From: Candidatus Micrarchaeia archaeon
GTDB taxonomy: Archaea > Micrarchaeota > Micrarchaeia > Micrarchaeales > CABMGC01
Length of the DNA: 44,445 bases
Assembly: GCA_049964835.1 (NCBI GenBank)
Contig: JBMFWW010000004.1
Span: 1 to 44,445, forward strand
Direction: 5' to 3'
Shown: positions 221 through 30,157 of the stretch, piece by piece
How positions within the stretch are numbered: position 1 is the first letter of the stretch
Layout: every line of letters begins with the position of its first letter
Made by a program: the position numbers and the translations under genes
Notes under the pieces: generated by a model
What the model was told of the DNA's origin: nothing
What the model saw: only the letters and a program-made list of their open reading frames with translations
The model's database searches: none

Positions 221-961
221 TCATACGCTTTGCACTATGCCGTTTAGATTGGTGGAAAGTGGAGCGCCTGATGCGGCTATCGTTCCGTTTGGATTTATTA
301 TGTAATAAATCTCTAGATAGCCTTTCGGATCGTACGAATATGTTGCGTTCAGATTAGAGATTCCATATAGCAATCCTGGATTTTGGGTGCCGTTTCCATA
401 TTGGTCTGCGAAACTCTGTATGGACGGGCCAGGCTGCCCTAAATCATTGTAAAGCTCTATAATTATTATATTCGCTCCTTTGGATCTTATTGCACTGTAA
501 TAGCCTCCAGATGTCAGGATATGCTCTCCCTCTTGGCATGAAGAGCACCATGTGGTTACCAACCACAATACTACTGGCTTGCCTCTCAGGTCGCCTAAGG
601 TAATACTTGTGCCGTTTGTCAATGTAATCGGGATGTTTGGTGCAAGCTCCCCAACAGTCGCGTTGGCTACTCCGTAAGTGGACTGGCTTCCTGCAGTCTG
701 CACACCGCTAGTTTGGGTGTGCTGAACTGCCAAAAAACTTAAGAATCCGATGCCGCCTAAGCCTAATAATGTGAGTATTCCACAGCATGCTATAGCTGCT
801 ATTGCAAGCATGGTGATGCCGCCTATGCTGCGCTTTTTTAGCTCGTTAATGCTAAGGCTGCCTTTATCCGCCTTGTGCTTGTCATTAAAATGTGCCATCA
901 GGCCAGCATCAGAATTAAGTTCTTTGTTACAAAACTTACATTTACTTGTCATGTTTTTCAT
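221..961 (-). CDS. Membrane-anchored TlpA/thioredoxin-like protein with N-terminal C2H2 zinc finger and Cys-Cys in TM helix
   Basis: CKFC-x12-HFNDKH finger; hydrophobic IAAIACCGILTLLGLGG; GELAPNIPITL...GDLRGKPVVLWLVTTWCSSC redoxin motif. Confidence 0.8.
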   Translation of the reverse strand: MKNMTSKCKFCNKELNSDAGLMAHFNDKHKADKGSLSINELKKRSIGGITMLAIAAIACCGILTLLGLGGIGFLSFLAVQHTQTSGVQTAGSQSTYGVANATVGELAPNIPITLTNGTSITLGDLRGKPVVLWLVTTWCSSCQEGEHILTSGGYYSAIRSKGANIIIIELYNDLGQPGPSIQSFADQYGNGTQNPGLLYGISNLNATYSYDPKGYLEIYYIINPNGTIAASGAPLSTNLNGIVQSV

Positions 962-1481
962 CTCTTTTCATGGTGCAACAGCACGCACTCTTTGAAATAT
1001 AATGGATTGAAACAACGAATAGTATCACCGATATGAAATAAAAATAAACGTAATTATTCTCAAAAAACGCATCTACAGGCACAGAGTAAGCAAAAACTAG
1101 GGGCGTAGACACGCCGAATAGTGCAATAATTGAAGGCACTATCGGAGTACAGCAAAGCAGGTTTACGAATGTGCTTAAGATCGCTCCAGCGGATGCTTTA
1201 GTGGCGGTGTTCTTAAATTTTGATGAATTTCGGATTCCTCTAATAGATAGGTTAAGTGTTATTGTAAGACCAAACAAAACACCGAAAATTATCGAGAATG
1301 CTATCTGAATTGGCGTGATAAATCTTACGAACGTTAGACTCACAGTGCCGTTAGGCAAAGAAGGCAAGAGAACAAGGTAAAGGGCCGTAAATACTATCGA
1401 TAAAGAAATCAATAACAAAACGTAATGATTATTATTAAGTATCATTCCAATCGCATTACTTTCATACTCAAGAAACGGCAT
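942..1481 (-). CDS. MerF/MerT-like heavy-metal (Hg) transporter, about 4 TM helices
   Basis: NLLCCTPIVPSIIALFGVS and C-terminal SACCCTMK resemble MerF (LCCFTP...ACCT); adjacent to merA. Confidence 0.7.
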   Translation of the reverse strand: MPFLEYESNAIGMILNNNHYVLLLISLSIVFTALYLVLLPSLPNGTVSLTFVRFITPIQIAFSIIFGVLFGLTITLNLSIRGIRNSSKFKNTATKASAGAILSTFVNLLCCTPIVPSIIALFGVSTPLVFAYSVPVDAFFENNYVYFYFISVILFVVSIHYISKSACCCTMKRDEKHDK

Positions 1482-1508
1482 TATATCTATAATTTATCAT
1501 ATGTTAAG

Positions 1509-1542
1509 TTATAAATATGTATTTGTCACATATATATTGTGA
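1509..1542. promoter_or_regulatory. Divergent promoter with candidate ArsR/SmtB operator inverted repeats
   Basis: TTATAAATA (1509-1517); ATATGT-N7-ACATAT (1515-1533); TCACA-N7-TGTGA (1526-1542), all in a 65-bp divergent intergenic gap. Confidence 0.5.
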
Positions 1543-1546
1543 TTTT

Positions 1547-1657
1547 ATGGCAAAACAAAAGCGGAATGCAAGGAAGGACATGGCTCATTCACAGGAAACA
1601 TCGCAAAAAGAGCAGACCGATAATGGTGGAGAAATGAAATGCAACTGCGATTGTTGA
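1547..1657 (+). CDS. 36-aa putative metal-binding peptide ending in CNCDC
   Basis: ATG 1547 to TGA 1657: MAKQKRNARKDMAHSQETSQKEQTDNGGEMKCNCDC; GTGAT RBS-like motif just upstream; first ORF ahead of arsR-merA. Confidence 0.6.
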   Translation: MAKQKRNARKDMAHSQETSQKEQTDNGGEMKCNCDC

Positions 1658-1677
1658 TCATTAAACGTTGATTTTGC

Positions 1678-2016
1678 ATGCAAAGAGAGAATAACATAGA
1701 TGTATTCATTTTCAAGGTGCTTTCAAACGAGGTTAGGCTGTCGATAATAGAGACACTCCTCAAGACTCCTATGAATGTAGGTGAAATTTGCGAAGAGACA
1801 CACGAAACGCAGTCTAGGATATCGCACGAGCTACGCTGCCTGGCGGTTTGTGGATTTGTTTACTCTAAAAGAGACGGGAAGAAAATAATATACGAACTTA
1901 ATAAAGATACAATAGCACCAATTATAGAGGCTGCAAATAAACACGCAAGGATTTTTGGAAACAAAATGAGAGGTTGTGAAATACTCTCCGACATAAGAAA
2001 GATGACTATTAAATGA
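1678..2016 (+). CDS. ArsR/SmtB-family transcriptional regulator (likely mer operon repressor)
   Basis: FKVLSNEVRLSIIETL...MNVGEICE...QSRISHEL..L...GFV...RDGKKIIYEL winged-helix pattern; four Cys. Confidence 0.92.
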   Translation: MQRENNIDVFIFKVLSNEVRLSIIETLLKTPMNVGEICEETHETQSRISHELRCLAVCGFVYSKRDGKKIIYELNKDTIAPIIEAANKHARIFGNKMRGCEILSDIRKMTIK

Positions 2017-2029
2017 AGAGGTAATAAAT

Positions 2030-3457
2030 TTGACAAACAAGGAATATGAATTGGTTATATTGGGTAACGGCGCTGCGGCGTTTGCCGCTGCAATAAAAGC
2101 CGATGAGCTTGGCAAGAAGACTGCCATGGTAAAAGGAGGCACAATTGGGGGAACATGCGTTAACGTCGGATGTGTTCCTAGCAAAAGACTTCTTATTAGT
2201 GGGGAAGTTATCAAAAATACAAAAATCCACAATTTAGGTAAAAATACAATTGTGCAGCATGATGAGGAGTTCGATTTCGCTAAGATAATGGAATTTAAGA
2301 AAAAGCTTGTAGAAGACCTTAGATCCGATAAATACGAAAAGGTGCTAAACAAGCTGTCAAACGTAGAGCTTTATGAAGGAATCGCAAGTTTCGTCTCTGA
2401 AAAAGAAATAGAAATTAGACATAATGATAAAAGTACAATTATTTCAGGCGGAAAATTCATTATAGCTACCGGTGCTAGCCCATCGATACCCAAACTTCAA
2501 GGGATAAGCGAAGTAAACTACTGGACAAATATAGAAGGCCTTGAACAGGAAAAAATTCCAGAATCGCTTATAGTAGTCGGGGGTCGAGCTCTTGGCCTAG
2601 AATTTGCCCAGATGTACAACAGGTTCGGAACAAAAGTAATTCTTCTGCAAAGAAGTCCACTGCTTATTCCTGAAGAAGAGCCGGAGATGTCAAAGGCAAT
2701 GGAATTATACTTGAAAGAAGATGGAATTGAGATACATACAAACGTCAATCTCAAAAGCTTTGAGAGAAATACTACAAGCAATAAAGCTATTGTAAATGCC
2801 GAGGTTGATGGAAAATCAGTCAAGTTTGAAGCGGCCATGATTCTCTTTGCTACNNNNNNNNNNNNNNNNNNNNNNNNNNNNNNNNNNNNNNNNNNNNNNN
2901 NNNNNNNNNNNNNNNNNNNNNNNNNNNNNNNNNNNNNNNNNNNNNNNNNNNNNNNNNNNNNNNNNNNNNNNNNNNNNNNNNNNNNNNNNNNNNNNNNNNN
3001 NNNNNNNNNNNNNNNNNNNNNNNNNNNNNNNNNNNNNNNNNNNNNNNNNNNNNNNNNNNNNNNNNNNNNNNNNNNNNNNNNNNNNNNNNNNNNNNNNNNN
3101 NNNNNNNNNNNNNNNNNNNNNNNNNNNNNNNNNNNNNNNNNNNNNNNNNNNNNNNNNNNNNNTTGCACGTGTAGGCTAGTTAGATTTACCGATGTACCAA
3201 AGGCCATCATAATGGGTGATACTAGGGGCATGATAAAGATGGTTGCACATCCAGAAACGCATGTCGTTCTGGGAGTCCAAATACTTTCGCCAATGGCAGC
3301 GGAAATTATTCATGAGGCCGTTATGATAGTAAAAAATAGGTATAAAGTAGAGGATGTAATAGACATGGTGCATGTATTTCCAACTATGTCTGAGGCTTTG
3401 AAAATGGTCGCCCAATCCTTCTTTAGAAATGTTAAAGATACAAGTTGCTGTATATGA
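2030..3457 (+). CDS. merA: Mercuric reductase without NmerA domain; interrupted by N-gap 2854-3162
   Basis: GNGAAA FAD motif, GGTCVNVGCVPSK redox centre, HVFPT, C-terminal SCCI vicinal cysteines; GAGGT RBS before TTG start. Confidence 0.93.
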   Translation: MTNKEYELVILGNGAAAFAAAIKADELGKKTAMVKGGTIGGTCVNVGCVPSKRLLISGEVIKNTKIHNLGKNTIVQHDEEFDFAKIMEFKKKLVEDLRSDKYEKVLNKLSNVELYEGIASFVSEKEIEIRHNDKSTIISGGKFIIATGASPSIPKLQGISEVNYWTNIEGLEQEKIPESLIVVGGRALGLEFAQMYNRFGTKVILLQRSPLLIPEEEPEMSKAMELYLKEDGIEIHTNVNLKSFERNTTSNKAIVNAEVDGKSVKFEAAMILFAXXXXXXXXXXXXXXXXXXXXXXXXXXXXXXXXXXXXXXXXXXXXXXXXXXXXXXXXXXXXXXXXXXXXXXXXXXXXXXXXXXXXXXXXXXXXXXXXXXXXXXXXCTCRLVRFTDVPKAIIMGDTRGMIKMVAHPETHVVLGVQILSPMAAEIIHEAVMIVKNRYKVEDVIDMVHVFPTMSEALKMVAQSFFRNVKDTSCCI

Positions 3458-3546
3458 CTATTAAAATCCTGTCAGAGGTTCTATCTATCACTCAATCCTC
3501 AAGGGAATACCCAAAATGAGGCGGGTGCCGCGCCGTAAGGATAAAG

Positions 3547-3619
3547 CGCCTTGGCCGGGATTCGAACCCGGGTCACAAGCGTGACAGGCTCGTATGCTAG
3601 ACCGCTACACTACCAAGGC
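3547..3619 (-). tRNA. tRNA-Asp(GTC)
   Basis: Reverse complement GCCTTGG TAGTGTAGCGGTCTAGCATA CGAGC-CTGTCAC-GCTTG TGAC CCGGG-TTCGAAT-CCCGG CCAAGGC G; CCA not encoded. Confidence 0.96.
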
Positions 3620-12854: not shown

Positions 12855-13002
12855 TATTAAGACCAATAATTATACTTTGTTATCTATATTCATATATAAA
12901 TGTTGCTATTTGTTTTTCGTAACAATTTATGTAGTACCTATGTTTATATTACTTACAAAAACTTATTTATTAATATATTGGTAAAATATGTTTGGTGTAA
13001 GT

Positions 13003-13473
13003 ATGATAACATTAGGAAACAAGATACCAGAGATAACATTGGTTGATACCGATCTTAATAGAATTAGTCTAAAAAATGAAGTAAAAGGCCCTACATTATT
13101 AGCTTTCTTTCCGGGCGCATTTACCGGAGTTTGTACAAAGGAACTATGCACATTTAGGGATAACATCTCAAAGTTTAATTCAATAAATGCAAAGGTTATA
13201 AGTATAAGCGTAGACGGACCATTTTCAAATAAGGCATTTAAAGAAAAGAATAACCTTACCTTTCAGGTTCTAAGCGATTATAATAGAGAAGCTGTAAGAT
13301 TATTTGGTGTAGAACTTAATAATTTTGCAGGTCTTAACGGATACACAGCAGCAAAGCGTTCTGTATTCTTAATAAATAAAGACGGAGTTGTAAGTTATGC
13401 GTGGATATCTGATGATCCTACAGTAGAACCAGATTACAATGTTATAATGTCTGAAATTCAAAAGTTAAAGTAA
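13003..13473 (+). CDS. Peroxiredoxin (BCP/PrxQ-like)
   Basis: FFPGAFTGVCTKELC PxxxTxxC motif, ISVD, AKRSVF. Confidence 0.92.
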   Translation: MITLGNKIPEITLVDTDLNRISLKNEVKGPTLLAFFPGAFTGVCTKELCTFRDNISKFNSINAKVISISVDGPFSNKAFKEKNNLTFQVLSDYNREAVRLFGVELNNFAGLNGYTAAKRSVFLINKDGVVSYAWISDDPTVEPDYNVIMSEIQKLK

Positions 13474-13513
13474 TGTATTATTTAAGCATTTATTAGTTAA
13501 TTTATTCAGAATG

Positions 13514-13599
13514 TGCAGGGGGTGAGATTTGAACTCACGGATCCACAAAGGAAACAGGCCCTGAACCTGTCGCATTTGACCAAGCTCTGCAACCCCTGC
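13514..13599 (-). tRNA. tRNA-Leu(CAG)
   Basis: Reverse complement GCAGGGG...ACAGG-TTCAGGG-CCTGT, long variable arm, GTGAG-TTCAAAT-CTCAC, CCCCTGC A. Confidence 0.95.
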
Positions 13600-17853: not shown

Positions 17854-19566
17854 ATGATTATCGGATATACAATAACTACCTCTGTTTTAATTTCTTTTGT
17901 AGTGCTGATTTTTGCAGTAATTTTTTACAGAAAGAATCTCAACTCATTGCTAAAAAAACATATAAATAAATATACACTTCTAGGATTAGTACTAATACTT
18001 GCATTTTTCATATCTTTGATGCTTATTTTTATTCATCCTGTCGAACAGCTGTTTTTTGATGAAAATATATATCAAGGAATAGCATTGAACATTGTACATA
18101 GCGGTAATAGTCTTTGGTGCCAGTATGGAACCGGTCTTTTAACACATTGTTATTCAAATCAATTATATCACGATCCAGTAGGTATTTTTGTATTCTTAGG
18201 AATAGTTCTTATGCTCTTCGGTCCAGGACCTCAAACTGCATATAATTTTCAATTATTTATAGGAATTTTATCAATAATCGGTGTATTTCTATTATCAAGC
18301 ATTATTACAGAAAGAAAGGCATTAGCACCAATATCTACCTTTATTTTTTCGTTAATACCTGAAGTTATTATTTGGTCAAGAACACAGGCAGCTCCAGATT
18401 TATACTTTATGATGTTTACTACTTTTTCATTTTTCTTTTTTATAGTGTTTACAAAAAATGAGAACAAAACAACTCTAATATTATTTTTGTCATCTCTTTC
18501 TCTAGCATTTTATTCAAGAATAGAAAGTTTTTTACTAATGCCTATTTTCATAATATTATACTTTATATTTGGAGATGCGCAGATTAAAGTAACTATTAAA
18601 AAAAGAGCCATGCTCTTAAAACGAATGATATCTGATTATAACTGGCTTATAATACTGCTTTTCTTTTTTCTAATTTTTGCATCACAAGGGCTTTATATAT
18701 ACCTTGAAAACCAATCACCGCAGTACGGCCAGGCATCAAATCAAAGTGTAATATCTATTTCTAACTTTAAACAAAATATCACTCCAAATGCAGAGTTTCT
18801 ATTAGGAACAACAACAAACTATCCAAGCATTTCAAGTATTAACTTGTTGGCATTAGCTATTCTTGGCTTTATCTTTATAATAATATTTAAAAGAATAAAA
18901 AATAGATTGGGCATATTTCTCATGCTTATTCTTTCTATACTACTCTTTTTTATTTTCTATACTTCTTTCTATGCTGGATCTGTAAATTATGGTGTAGATG
19001 TAAGATTCATGTTGGAACTTATGCCATTTATTGCAATAGCTGCAGGATTTGGAGTGTTAGGACTTACGGACATTGTATATTTTGGATTTAAAAAATTATT
19101 GAAAGTTAAAAAGGAAGTATTTTTACTTATTCTAAGCACAATTTTAATAATTACAGTAATAATTCCATTTTATTTAATAATTCCGTATATAACAATACCA
19201 GTAAATGAAATGCCTCAAGAATACTTTAATACTCAAGCTACTTCATTTATATACAATAATTACCAAAAAGTACCTACAAGCTGTCTTGTCTTTTCATTCA
19301 CACCCGATATATGGTATGAATTAAATAGGAGCGCGGCTCAGGTTTCTTATATGAGCGAATTAAATTCAAATACAAGCAACAATCTATTCAAAAATTATTC
19401 ATGTTTTGTTTTTGATTATGGATATTGGTGCACAGTTTCTGAATTTAGTTCTTCAACTTGTGGTTCTCAATTATTTAGTTACAATACATCTGTTTTAGCT
19501 ACAGAGAGAAATTCAGAAGGATCAAATTTTACATTATATAAGATAAATAACGCTACAAGTAAGTAG
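17854..19566 (+). CDS. GT-C membrane glycosyltransferase (PMT/ArnT, GT39-like)
   Basis: FFDENIY acidic motif after first TMs, YHDP, many TM helices, RFMLELMP late motif. Confidence 0.8.
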   Translation: MIIGYTITTSVLISFVVLIFAVIFYRKNLNSLLKKHINKYTLLGLVLILAFFISLMLIFIHPVEQLFFDENIYQGIALNIVHSGNSLWCQYGTGLLTHCYSNQLYHDPVGIFVFLGIVLMLFGPGPQTAYNFQLFIGILSIIGVFLLSSIITERKALAPISTFIFSLIPEVIIWSRTQAAPDLYFMMFTTFSFFFFIVFTKNENKTTLILFLSSLSLAFYSRIESFLLMPIFIILYFIFGDAQIKVTIKKRAMLLKRMISDYNWLIILLFFFLIFASQGLYIYLENQSPQYGQASNQSVISISNFKQNITPNAEFLLGTTTNYPSISSINLLALAILGFIFIIIFKRIKNRLGIFLMLILSILLFFIFYTSFYAGSVNYGVDVRFMLELMPFIAIAAGFGVLGLTDIVYFGFKKLLKVKKEVFLLILSTILIITVIIPFYLIIPYITIPVNEMPQEYFNTQATSFIYNNYQKVPTSCLVFSFTPDIWYELNRSAAQVSYMSELNSNTSNNLFKNYSCFVFDYGYWCTVSEFSSSTCGSQLFSYNTSVLATERNSEGSNFTLYKINNATSK

Positions 19567-28570: not shown

Positions 28571-30157
28571 ATGAAAAAAATTATAAACATTTGGTTTGTT
28601 TTTGCTTTGGCTGCGATGGCATTGCCCGCTATTGTAAACGCACAAAGTGTCAGTGGAGCACTGAGTGTAACAAATCTGCAAATATCCCCGAATCCAATAA
28701 TCGCAGGTTCTAATGCGCAGATAAGCTTTCAAATATATGACTCTTATTCATCAACACTGAATAATGTAAATATACAATTGCAAGGAGCATATCCAATATT
28801 AAATTTTTCTCCAGCAGGATTGCAAATAGTTAGCAGCATGTCACAAGGGATATATGGCGGCTCTAGTACATACTTTACATATAATATAAACATACCAAAA
28901 GATACTCCTTCAGGAACATACACATTAAATGTACTAGCTACTTATCAAAGCACACAAATTGGAGCTACTGGTTCTACAGAAACGGTTACAGGTTCATCTG
29001 TAATGCCCATTACCTTTTATGTGAACGGACAGCCAAATGTAACATTAACATCACAACCGAGCCAGATCTTACCTGGTCAACAGTTTAATATGGAATTGAA
29101 TGTGTTAAACTCTGGATATGCGGCTGGAAAAAATATAACAATAACACTTGAAAATAATACAAACTTTACGCCTATAGGTGCAAAATCTTTCAATATAGGA
29201 CTTCTAAATCAAGGAACATCAGCGCAATTAACTGCTCAGTATCAGGCAAATAAATTCATAACTAATGGAACTTATACCATACCTATTTTAGTAACATATC
29301 AAACAGAAACAGGCCAAAAGTATACCGAGACGCAAAATCAGAAAATCAATATATTAATAAACAATCCTAATATCGTAATAAATGTTGTGTCTGAAGAACC
29401 ACAAACTTTGTATAAAGGTTATAATCAAACTTTAGGATTAGTAATCAGTAACATAGGAACAGGAACAGCAAACAATGTTTCTGTAGCATTTAACTCTGGG
29501 TACGGAATAAATGTCCTCAGTTCTGTATCCAAGATGTTTATAGGAAGTATAGCACCAGGACAGGGAGTAGATGAATCATTACTTATATCTGCATCTAACT
29601 ATTCTTCAAATAATGCATCTTTCTATGCAACTGTAAAGTACCTCTCTGCAAATTATCACTCAGTATTCAATAAAAATATAACAATACCAATAAACATTGC
29701 TTCATCTTCAACATTTAGTATAAGCAGTGGAAATTACTCTATACCACTAGGAGCAACAGCGGTTCCATTGAATCTTGTTATAACAAATACTGGAAATATA
29801 GACGCGCAAAATATTCAACTTTCATTGCAGAGTGGCTATCCGATAACGCCAGTTACAAGTTCAGACTACATACAGCAACTTGCACCAGGACAGAGCGCAA
29901 ACGTAACATTTGAGGTTAGTGCAGATACAAACGCAAATTCCGGAACATACCCAATAACAATATACGAAACGTGGAAACAGCCAAATGGAGCTGTAGAACA
30001 GTTGTATTCCGGTACAAATGTTTATTATGCCGTAGTTGGAGGAAGTTCAGCAGGTGGCTCTGGAACTATAACAGACGTAGTAATAATTATCATAGTTGTC
30101 ATAATTCTGGTAGCTATCTATAGAAGAATGAAATCCTCTATGAAGAAAAAGCAATAA
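28571..30157 (+). CDS. COG1361 S-layer-domain-like surface protein
   Basis: Signal peptide, repeated N-x-G-x-x-x-A-x-N-V/I Ig-like modules, GTY motifs, C-terminal TM plus basic tail. Confidence 0.82.
   Translation: MKKIINIWFVFALAAMALPAIVNAQSVSGALSVTNLQISPNPIIAGSNAQISFQIYDSYSSTLNNVNIQLQGAYPILNFSPAGLQIVSSMSQGIYGGSSTYFTYNINIPKDTPSGTYTLNVLATYQSTQIGATGSTETVTGSSVMPITFYVNGQPNVTLTSQPSQILPGQQFNMELNVLNSGYAAGKNITITLENNTNFTPIGAKSFNIGLLNQGTSAQLTAQYQANKFITNGTYTIPILVTYQTETGQKYTETQNQKINILINNPNIVINVVSEEPQTLYKGYNQTLGLVISNIGTGTANNVSVAFNSGYGINVLSSVSKMFIGSIAPGQGVDESLLISASNYSSNNASFYATVKYLSANYHSVFNKNITIPINIASSSTFSISSGNYSIPLGATAVPLNLVITNTGNIDAQNIQLSLQSGYPITPVTSSDYIQQLAPGQSANVTFEVSADTNANSGTYPITIYETWKQPNGAVEQLYSGTNVYYAVVGGSSAGGSGTITDVVIIIIVVIILVAIYRRMKSSMKKKQ

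Follow-up and report, generated by a model that had tools for sequence, protein, structure and literature searches.

Within a 44,445-nt stretch of DNA (GenBank contig JBMFWW010000004.1, positions 1 to 44,445, deposited as Candidatus Micrarchaeia archaeon and hereafter called the window), we identified a horizontally mobile mercury-resistance cassette of about 3.3 kb, organized as two divergent operons. One operon encodes an ArsR-family regulator and a mercuric reductase (MerA), and the other encodes a membrane-anchored redoxin fusion together with a four-transmembrane (TM) protein of an unnamed family, referred to below as the pair. Our favored reading, held with moderate confidence, is that the pair acts as a capture-and-uptake relay for Hg(II), analogous to MerT and MerP. 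This reading draws on the linkage of the two genes to each other and to merA, and on the conserved cysteines and topology signal of their products.

Linkage of the redoxin and membrane-protein genes to merA

We scanned species-representative genomes once with the redoxin alignment and obtained 80 loci, cited by number (L001 and so on) where they need to be told apart. An open reading frame (ORF) of the membrane-protein family is found with the redoxin gene in 68 of the 80 and is adjacent to it on the same strand in 66; in L065 the membrane gene is on the opposite strand at a distance of 2 kb, and in L052 only a 42-aa fragment is present. In ten of the 12 loci without a membrane ORF, the redoxin gene is no more than about 500 nt from where the contig ends, leaving L022 and L027 as real exceptions. 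The L006 contig ends just after the redoxin gene, before the membrane gene. MerA-like ORFs were scanned as well (n = 53); 38 of them score at or above the TIGR02053 cut-off, one in each of 38 loci and within 8 kb or less, and five more loci hold cut or partial copies. In the 38 loci flanked on each side by 5 kb or more, the membrane gene is present in 37 and a full MerA in 25. The initial annotation of this DNA had assigned the two leftward genes to the mer module and had named co-occurrence of the accessory genes with merA elsewhere as a way to check this; for the pair, that co-occurrence is borne out across many genomes.

By record title, the hosts are Micrarchaeota, Marsarchaeota, Thermoprotei, haloarchaea, Actinomycetota (the majority), Dormiibacterota, Chloroflexi, Bacillota and Proteobacteria, and the loci with MerA span Micrarchaeota, other archaea and all five of these bacterial groups. 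Most of the 80 redoxin relatives are in bacterial metagenome-assembled genomes (MAGs), mainly of Actinomycetota, and the pair also occurs on proteobacterial plasmids (below); the system is not archaeal-specific. In L002-L005, L007 and L008, arsR, the redoxin gene and the membrane gene lie on one strand with merA divergent, so that the regulator is directly upstream of the pair. We also noted a conserved insert of about 1.2 kb without a long ORF between merA and arsR in three loci (L002 4563-5772, L005 2132-3297 and L006 6474-7640); the same interval is only 125-235 bp in L003, L004, L007 and L008.

Canonical MerT, MerF, MerP, MerC and MerE are nearly absent from the 80 loci, with weak matches (E<=0.01) in about 10. 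The best weak MerT- or MerF-like ORFs, the redoxin itself aside, reach 26 bits, in L040 and L046, and the MerP-like or HMA matches are to a small L058 protein, two long ORFs, a short L025 ORF and the NmerA of the L040 MerA. A weak MerT-like small ORF was seen upstream in L052 and L062. Beside the pair in L052, L062, L064 and L066 is a MerA-like flavoprotein that lacks the C-terminal CC; three of these were scored, at about 345 bits to TIGR02053, which is below its cut-off.

The pair is also found in cultured bacteria: tblastn searches against plasmids detected the membrane gene on two plasmids of the acidophiles Acidiphilium and Acidithiobacillus. On pACMV1 of Acidiphilium multivorum AIU301, a MerR-family gene (by Pfam MerR domains) is divergent from a hypothetical gene followed by merA, the redoxin gene and the membrane gene, and on the Acidithiobacillus ferrooxidans plasmid a helix-turn-helix gene (by annotation only) is divergent from merA, redoxin and membrane genes. 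The redoxin is annotated there as 'redoxin domain-containing protein' and the membrane protein as 'hypothetical protein', and neither plasmid stretch contains an annotated merT or merP; the conserved, unnamed pair sits at the usual merT/merP place. Two hypothetical proteins encoded in or just after these operons (L081 3172-3684 on pACMV1, 170 aa; L082 6470-7063, 197 aa) had no Pfam match at E<=0.01. With the window membrane protein as the query, tblastn matched six plasmids, none of them mycobacterial (the MerH sequence itself was not compared), and with an actinobacterial family member it matched none. The mycobacterial transporter MerH has no link to the family that is visible from these plasmid matches.

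Cysteine layout and relatives of the membrane protein and the redoxin

The membrane protein carries a vicinal cysteine pair, C110 and C111, in TM3 (LCCTPxxP, including P116) and three cysteines, C168, C169 and C170, in its C-terminal tail. C110, C111 and P116 are invariant (LCC[T/S]PxxP) in an alignment of 58 family sequences, and at least two tail cysteines are present in 53 of the 58. A HMMER pass with a broad profile found 302 clusters of the family at E<=0.001 among 1.84 billion representatives, and most of the best 150 of these are 160-240 aa long; a word-indexed search had found only 10 relatives. Eight longer members (246-630 aa) showed no Pfam domain and no informative fusion, and no family model was matched above its cut-off in a Pfam and NCBIfam scan of the window protein and 57 relatives. 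The AlphaFold2 (AF2) model has four long helices (pLDDT 78.9, pTM 0.72). Mean numbers of lysine plus arginine are 3.4 in the N-terminus, 3.3 in the loop between helices 2 and 3 and 3.3 in the tail, compared with 0.9 and 0.6 in the remaining loops, a distribution that points to an N-in/C-in topology and therefore places the CC pair within TM3 and the tail cysteines in the cytoplasm. Searches of PDB by sequence gave only chance matches, one with phmmer (E 0.57) and one with the profile (E 1.5), and the 30 nearest clusters in the ESM Atlas are all labeled 'hypothetical protein' and have no Pfam assignment. The nearest named cluster there is HMA, at 0.76, which we regard as a lead only.

Given that this protein had been described as MerF-like, we compared the family with known mercury transporters. 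Five of the 58 members match the MerF model NF033565, the best with an E value of 0.018 and all below the 50-bit cut-off, and two match the MerTP fusion model (best E 0.83). The window protein itself matched neither NF033565 nor Pfam Transport_MerF, its relatives had no Pfam match, and the 58 sequences gave no match to the Pfam and NCBIfam MerT models. MerF has two helices in about 80 aa, whereas the window protein has four helices in 179 aa, with the CC-TP motif and a C-terminal CC both present. The MerF-like label of the earlier description stands as a resemblance of motifs, which is not enough to make the protein a MerF family member.

For profile-profile comparison with hhalign, canonical merT, merP, merC, merE and merF were taken from annotated plasmids. 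Against MerT the family reached 78.5% (E 1.7e-5, 71 columns) with both cysteine pairs in register, TM3, TM4 and the tail of the family falling on TM1, TM2 and the loop of MerT, although the MerT alignment was small (six sequences). Against MerF, for which the alignment was also small (seven sequences), the family reached 29.7%, over the CC helix only; as a benchmark, MerF against MerT gave 92.6%. Reversed-profile controls gave 16-18% for MerT and about 2% for MerF, and column-shuffle controls, 40 for each, had a maximum of 2.8%. MerC and MerE were rejected as relatives at 0.4% and 0.2%, respectively. The membrane protein resembles MerT in its cysteine layout, with membership in the family not demonstrable from these alignments; it may be a distant MerT relative and is a candidate Hg(II) transporter.

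What the family has in common with MerT and MerF is a vicinal cysteine pair followed by a proline in a TM helix, a second helix, a cytoplasmic cysteine pair, and operons containing merA. It differs in being larger, with four TM helices (two extra at the N-terminus) and about 170 aa, compared with 116 aa for MerT and 80 aa for MerF, in carrying the second cysteine pair on the C-terminal tail instead of between TM2 and TM3 as in MerT, and in its constant partner, which is a thioredoxin-fold protein for this family and MerP for MerT.

That partner, the redoxin, is encoded by a gene that overlaps the membrane-protein gene by 20 nt. It is composed of a cytoplasmic C2H2-like finger (C8-x2-C11-x12-H24-x4-H29), a TM helix containing C59 and C60, a disordered linker, and a ResA/TlpA-like thioredoxin-fold domain with a W138-C139-S-S-C142 motif, the last predicted to be extracytoplasmic from the K/R-rich segment that precedes the TM helix. 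The matches to Pfam AhpC-TSA (32.5 bits, cut-off 26) and Redoxin (26.9 bits, cut-off 26.6) are above cut-off, and the match to the ResA model NF002854 (39.2 bits) is below its cut-off of 170. A search of PDB with the redoxin profile placed ResA at the top (6.8e-15), followed by TlpA, CcmG/DsbE and DsbF. The AF2 model (mean pLDDT 82.9) has a beta-beta-alpha unit at residues 6-28 (pLDDT 80-89), one helix at residues 49-60, a disordered linker, and a domain from about residue 101 at pLDDT 97-98; in Foldseek, ResA and DsbE structures match with a TM score of 0.80 and Sco copper chaperones rank lower. T137, W138, C139 and C142 are invariant in an alignment of 63 redoxin sequences.

Most relatives of the redoxin are simpler: ahead of the CxxC domain they have only a basic N-terminal stretch and a single TM helix. 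The C2H2-like finger is confined to Micrarchaeota-type redoxins and a few other archaeal relatives; a C-x2-C-x12-H-x3-5-H pattern is kept in most of the closer relatives. The Pfam zinc-finger matches are all below cut-off (E 0.005-0.06). The vicinal CC in the TM helix is found only in Micrarchaeota-type redoxins, and in L005, L006 and L008 this helix weakly matches the MerT profile. A second redoxin paralog lies directly after or before the pair in L004 (9121-9810), L008 (3614-4150) and many actinobacterial loci.

As in ResA, TlpA and CcmG (DsbE), which are its best matches in both sequence and fold, the redoxin has an N-terminal anchor, an extracytoplasmic thioredoxin fold and a WCxxC motif. 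It differs from them in the C(S/P)SC dipeptide, in having a MerT-like four-TM protein and merA as its partners, and in its neighborhood, where we saw neither cytochrome c maturation genes nearby nor a CcdA-like gene beside it; the Micrarchaeota form additionally has the C2H2-like finger and the CC-bearing TM helix. Its proposed role resembles that of MerP, likewise an extracytoplasmic CxxC protein whose gene adjoins a transporter gene, yet the fold is thioredoxin/ResA-like and not the ferredoxin-like HMA fold, the protein is anchored in the membrane and not soluble, and no HMA match was found.

Several observations weigh against a dedicated mercury relay. The similarity to MerT comes nearly all from the cysteine positions, dropping to 3.8% when the template cysteines are changed to alanine; the MerF-MerT benchmark likewise drops, to 7.6%. 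A Foldseek search of PDB with the membrane-protein model gave no match at E<=0.001, and the nearest relatives of the redoxin (ResA, TlpA and DsbE) are disulfide reductases, not known metal carriers. The survey counts, obtained with the redoxin as bait, cover redoxin loci and not the share of all merA genes, and a full MerA is missing from the flanks in 13 of the 38 well-flanked loci. Five MerA-less actinobacterial loci have genes for a BlaI-family (Penicillinase_R) repressor and/or an M48 BlaR1-like protease upstream of the pair (both in L038, the repressor only in L036 and L049, the protease only in L041 and L056), and in L076 an ArsR gene precedes the pair, with a DsbA-cupredoxin fusion nearby. 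Since well-flanked loci without MerA have such other contexts, the pair is not exclusive to mercury; it is a module mostly, not solely, recruited to mer, and the BlaI/BlaR1-type neighbors suggest a second, non-mer regulatory context.

These points bear on the main rival explanation, in which the pair would be a thiol-disulfide redox module, analogous to CcdA plus ResA, that protects and does not transport in mer operons. The membrane protein would then conduct reducing power, and the redoxin would keep or restore reduced envelope cysteines under metal or oxidant stress. ResA, TlpA, CcmG/DsbE and DsbF, to which the redoxin is nearest in sequence and fold, work with a membrane electron conduit. 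The second redoxin paralog carried by many loci also fits this explanation, as does the occurrence of the pair without MerA, behind BlaI-family or BlaR1-like genes and beside the DsbA-cupredoxin gene. However, vicinal cysteines within a TM helix together with a cytoplasmic cysteine pair are what MerT, MerF and the C-terminus of MerA show, whereas CcdA and DsbD have single cysteines in separate helices, and the hhalign alignment to MerT has both pairs in register. No PDB chain matched the membrane family, either by sequence at E<=10 (bar one chance-level match) or by fold at E<=0.001, in a set that presumably includes solved CcdA structures, if any exist; no CcdA alignment was compared. The two plasmid operons, in which the pair occupies the usual merT/merP place and no other transporter is annotated, also argue for transport. 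We consider a purely redox role rather unlikely, if a serious competitor.

More improbable, in our judgment, is that the pair is a general device of acidophile envelopes for binding or sequestering soft metals (Cu, Cd, Hg, Ag), recruited to various resistance islands and lacking a directional hand-off to MerA. Such a device would be in line with the several regulatory contexts of the pair (ArsR, MerR and BlaI/CopY-family), with the shared fold of the lower-ranking Sco-type copper chaperones, and with source records that, from our reading of isolate and source labels, appear to come mostly from mine-drainage or acidic metal-rich sites. Yet no other metal gene adjoins the pair nearly as often as MerA, which is there in 25 of the 38 well-flanked loci; the cytoplasmic cysteine tail argues for inward delivery, and no efflux pump is consistently linked.

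Cassette architecture, regulator and host

The five ORFs first listed for the cassette are present exactly at their original coordinates in the window ORF table, in two divergent units with a 65-bp gap between them. Four of them are real genes, and the fifth, an ORF ending in CNCDC that had been counted with them as a cysteine-rich gene, is not supported as one.

Features of the cassette and its edges in the window
Feature	Position	Strand	Basis
IS200/IS605 TnpA, C-terminal fragment cut by contig start	3..167	+	Pfam Y1_Tnp, 32.1 bits (cut-off 23)
Shared mer cassette extent	221..3517		blastn against L001
Membrane-anchored redoxin fusion, 246 aa	221..961	-	Pfam AhpC-TSA and Redoxin above cut-off
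Four-TM membrane protein, 179 aa, unnamed family	942..1481	-	Family alignment and AF2 model
Divergent intergenic region, 65 bp, AT-rich, presumed promoter/operator	1482..1546		Read from sequence
36-codon ORF ending CNCDC (46 codons from 1517), doubtful as gene	1547..1657	+	Relative only in L001
ArsR/SmtB-family regulator, 112 aa	1678..2016	+	HTH_5 and NF033788 above cut-off
Mercuric reductase MerA, 475 aa, without NmerA	2030..3457	+	TIGR02053 best for both visible parts
tRNA-Asp(GTC)	3546..3619	-	ARAGORN; 29 nt past cassette right edge (3517)

MerA has both the N-terminal CxxxxC of the core, as the redox pair C43/C48 (GGTC43VNVGC48), and a C-terminal vicinal pair, C473 and C474 (...SCCI). The central part of merA, about 103 codons, reads N, and the visible parts score 278.9 and 119.1 bits to TIGR02053, the best family for each; the MerA copy in L001, which is 92% identical, reaches 558.7 bits (cut-off 454.45). 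Because the alignment starts at position 1 of the TIGR02053 model, no NmerA is present. The regulator is above cut-off for HTH_5 PF01022 (40.6 bits, cut-off 22) and NF033788 (72.4 bits, cut-off 55). Family models thus support the original description of a mer module with an ArsR-type regulator and MerA.

The cysteines of the regulator are C38, C54, C58 and C100, of which C54, C58 and C100 are invariant in all 16 ArsR neighbors of the pair, from archaea and bacteria. We take these three to correspond to Cys57, Cys61 and Cys102 of CmtR. Like CmtR-type (alpha4C-site) regulators, this ArsR has two cysteines four apart in the recognition-helix region and a third near the C-terminus, but it is not a CmtR equivalog by score (35.4 bits to NF047906, below the cut-off of 150), and its genomic context is mercury, not Cd/Pb. 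The AT-rich region between the operons, read as the presumed promoter/operator, contains TCACA-N7-TGTGA at about 1525-1541.

Neither HMA/MerP nor TRASH was matched in the five ORFs at E<=0.1 (Pfam, with HMA also in NCBIfam), so that, together with the start of the MerA alignment, the earlier statement that MerH, MerP and NmerA are missing holds. In a review of the mer system, Sulfolobus mer is described as having ArsR and TRASH (Boyd and Barkay, 2012, PMC3466566). The Sulfolobus-type locus likewise combines an archaeal ArsR-family regulator with a MerA that lacks NmerA (PMC3466566); the window cassette differs from it in having no TRASH protein and in having two membrane proteins.

The CNCDC ORF had been interpreted as a gene for a micropeptide, which would relay Hg in the cytoplasm. 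It is intact in both the window and L001, with its last 10 codons (GGEMKCNCDC) identical, but ten identical codons are not unusual at 9% divergence. Outside L001, where the cassette is 92% identical, the ORF was not found in the intergenic regions examined in L002-L008 and L012, and a search of 5.8 billion proteins found no homolog of the peptide. Between the window and L001, the ORF has two synonymous and eight non-synonymous changes, distributed over the codon positions as [4,2,4], and so changes like non-coding DNA. The adjoining genes differ in this respect, with 12 synonymous to four non-synonymous changes ([6,0,14]) for arsR and 46 to 21 ([12,9,52]) and 13 to three ([1,1,14]) for the visible parts of merA. 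A real relay micropeptide is therefore very improbable; the ORF is doubtful as a gene, and the segment is better read as a leader for the arsR-merA transcript.

The mobility of the cassette is seen from four lines of evidence: the limits of the stretch it shares with L001, an inverted repeat in L001, an IS200 fragment, and integrase matches beside merA. Blastn matches between the window and L001 are limited to 221-2853 and 3163-3517, at 92-93.5% nucleotide identity; the rest of the 44-kb window has no match to L001, and the flanks are unrelated. The L001 cassette is flanked by a 112-nt inverted repeat that is 96% complementary (L001 1428-1539 and 4909-5020), the arms of which are the 3´ end of the redoxin gene and a copy past merA; the window shows no repeat of this kind. 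Integrase matches adjoin merA in L002 (a fragment) and L006, a TnpB-like fragment is present in L002, and the flanks vary among the Micrarchaeota loci. The first two kb of the window have a G+C content of 0.43 and 0.37, whereas elsewhere it is about 0.30, mostly in the range of about 0.28-0.35, a difference that fits a recent arrival of the cassette. The tRNA-Asp gene by the right edge may mark an integration site. The TnpA fragment ends about 50 nt to the left of the left edge, and beyond the tRNA-Asp there is a run of N, after which the sequence is unreadable.

The remaining genes of the window are of archaeal-chromosome type, including SMC, archaeal LeuRS, S7, aEF-2, L7Ae and digeranylgeranylglycerophospholipid reductase (NCBIfam). 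The closest cassettes lie in MAGs labeled Micrarchaeota, which makes the DPANN host suggested initially plausible, yet unproven given that the cassette is mobile; blastp of 22 window proteins against the ORFs of all surveyed loci gave no informative match on host lineage. Elsewhere in the window, a thiol peroxidase/peroxiredoxin-like gene (12988-13473, +) adjoins tRNA-Leu(CAG) (13513-13599, -), and several ORFs of 200-570 aa, such as 17854-19566 and 28571-30157, have no NCBIfam match at E<=1e-10.

A candidate route for Hg(II) into the cell

We propose that the leftward operon would supply a redoxin and a membrane protein that take over the jobs of MerP and MerT, and that the rightward operon would supply, behind a leader containing the doubtful CNCDC ORF, an ArsR-family repressor with a three-cysteine sensing site and a core MerA. 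Extracellular Hg(II) would first be captured at the WCSSC pair of the ResA-like domain of the anchored redoxin, which may in addition maintain the pathway's thiols in the reduced state where the medium is oxidizing and acidic. The ion would then be handed to the buried vicinal cysteine pair in TM3 of the four-TM protein, and in Micrarchaeota possibly also to the CC in the redoxin TM helix, and from there on to the cysteine pair of the cytoplasmic tail of the transporter. The tail would pass it to the C-terminal CC of MerA for reduction to volatile Hg(0). The analysis shows which genes these are, their conserved cysteine positions, the topology signal, the linkage of the two genes to each other and to merA, and that the cassette is mobile; that Hg is bound, which way it is passed and that it controls the genes are the parts we infer. 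Of the capture, uptake, relay and reduction system envisaged in the initial annotation, the place of the accessory pair in a mercury system is upheld, and the micropeptide, the restriction to archaea and the exclusivity for Hg are given up.

A full-text literature search found no description of merA together with the redoxin and membrane pair, supplementary tables, which may list neighbors, being outside its scope. Passages of mer surveys likewise gave no account of the pair, in agreement with the earlier suggestion that this architecture is undescribed. MerA was listed in 22 Micrarchaeota genomes (Christakis et al., 2021, PMC8261052), and in the text of that article the word 'redoxin' is absent and 'thioredoxin' occurs only in the reference list. 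According to the earlier review, archaeal mer operons often consist of merA alone, with binding and transport genes missing, an exception being a merP homolog in Ferroplasma (Boyd and Barkay, 2012, PMC3466566).

Our wider proposal, advanced more tentatively than the relay itself, is that the LCC(T/S)P protein and its ResA-like partner could constitute an unrecognized, widespread Hg(II) uptake system, a distant branch of MerT with a thioredoxin-fold substitute for MerP. It could be the first candidate transporter of archaeal mer operons, moving in a compact cassette between archaea and bacteria of acidic, metal-rich habitats. The presence of the pair in cultured, tractable acidophiles (Acidiphilium multivorum AIU301 and Acidithiobacillus ferrooxidans) makes the proposal directly testable. 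If true, the mer repertoire would gain a transporter family and a use of the thioredoxin fold that are both new, several hundred genes now called 'hypothetical' or 'redoxin' would be better annotated, and a marker would become available for metagenomic surveys of how Hg is cycled in mine drainage.

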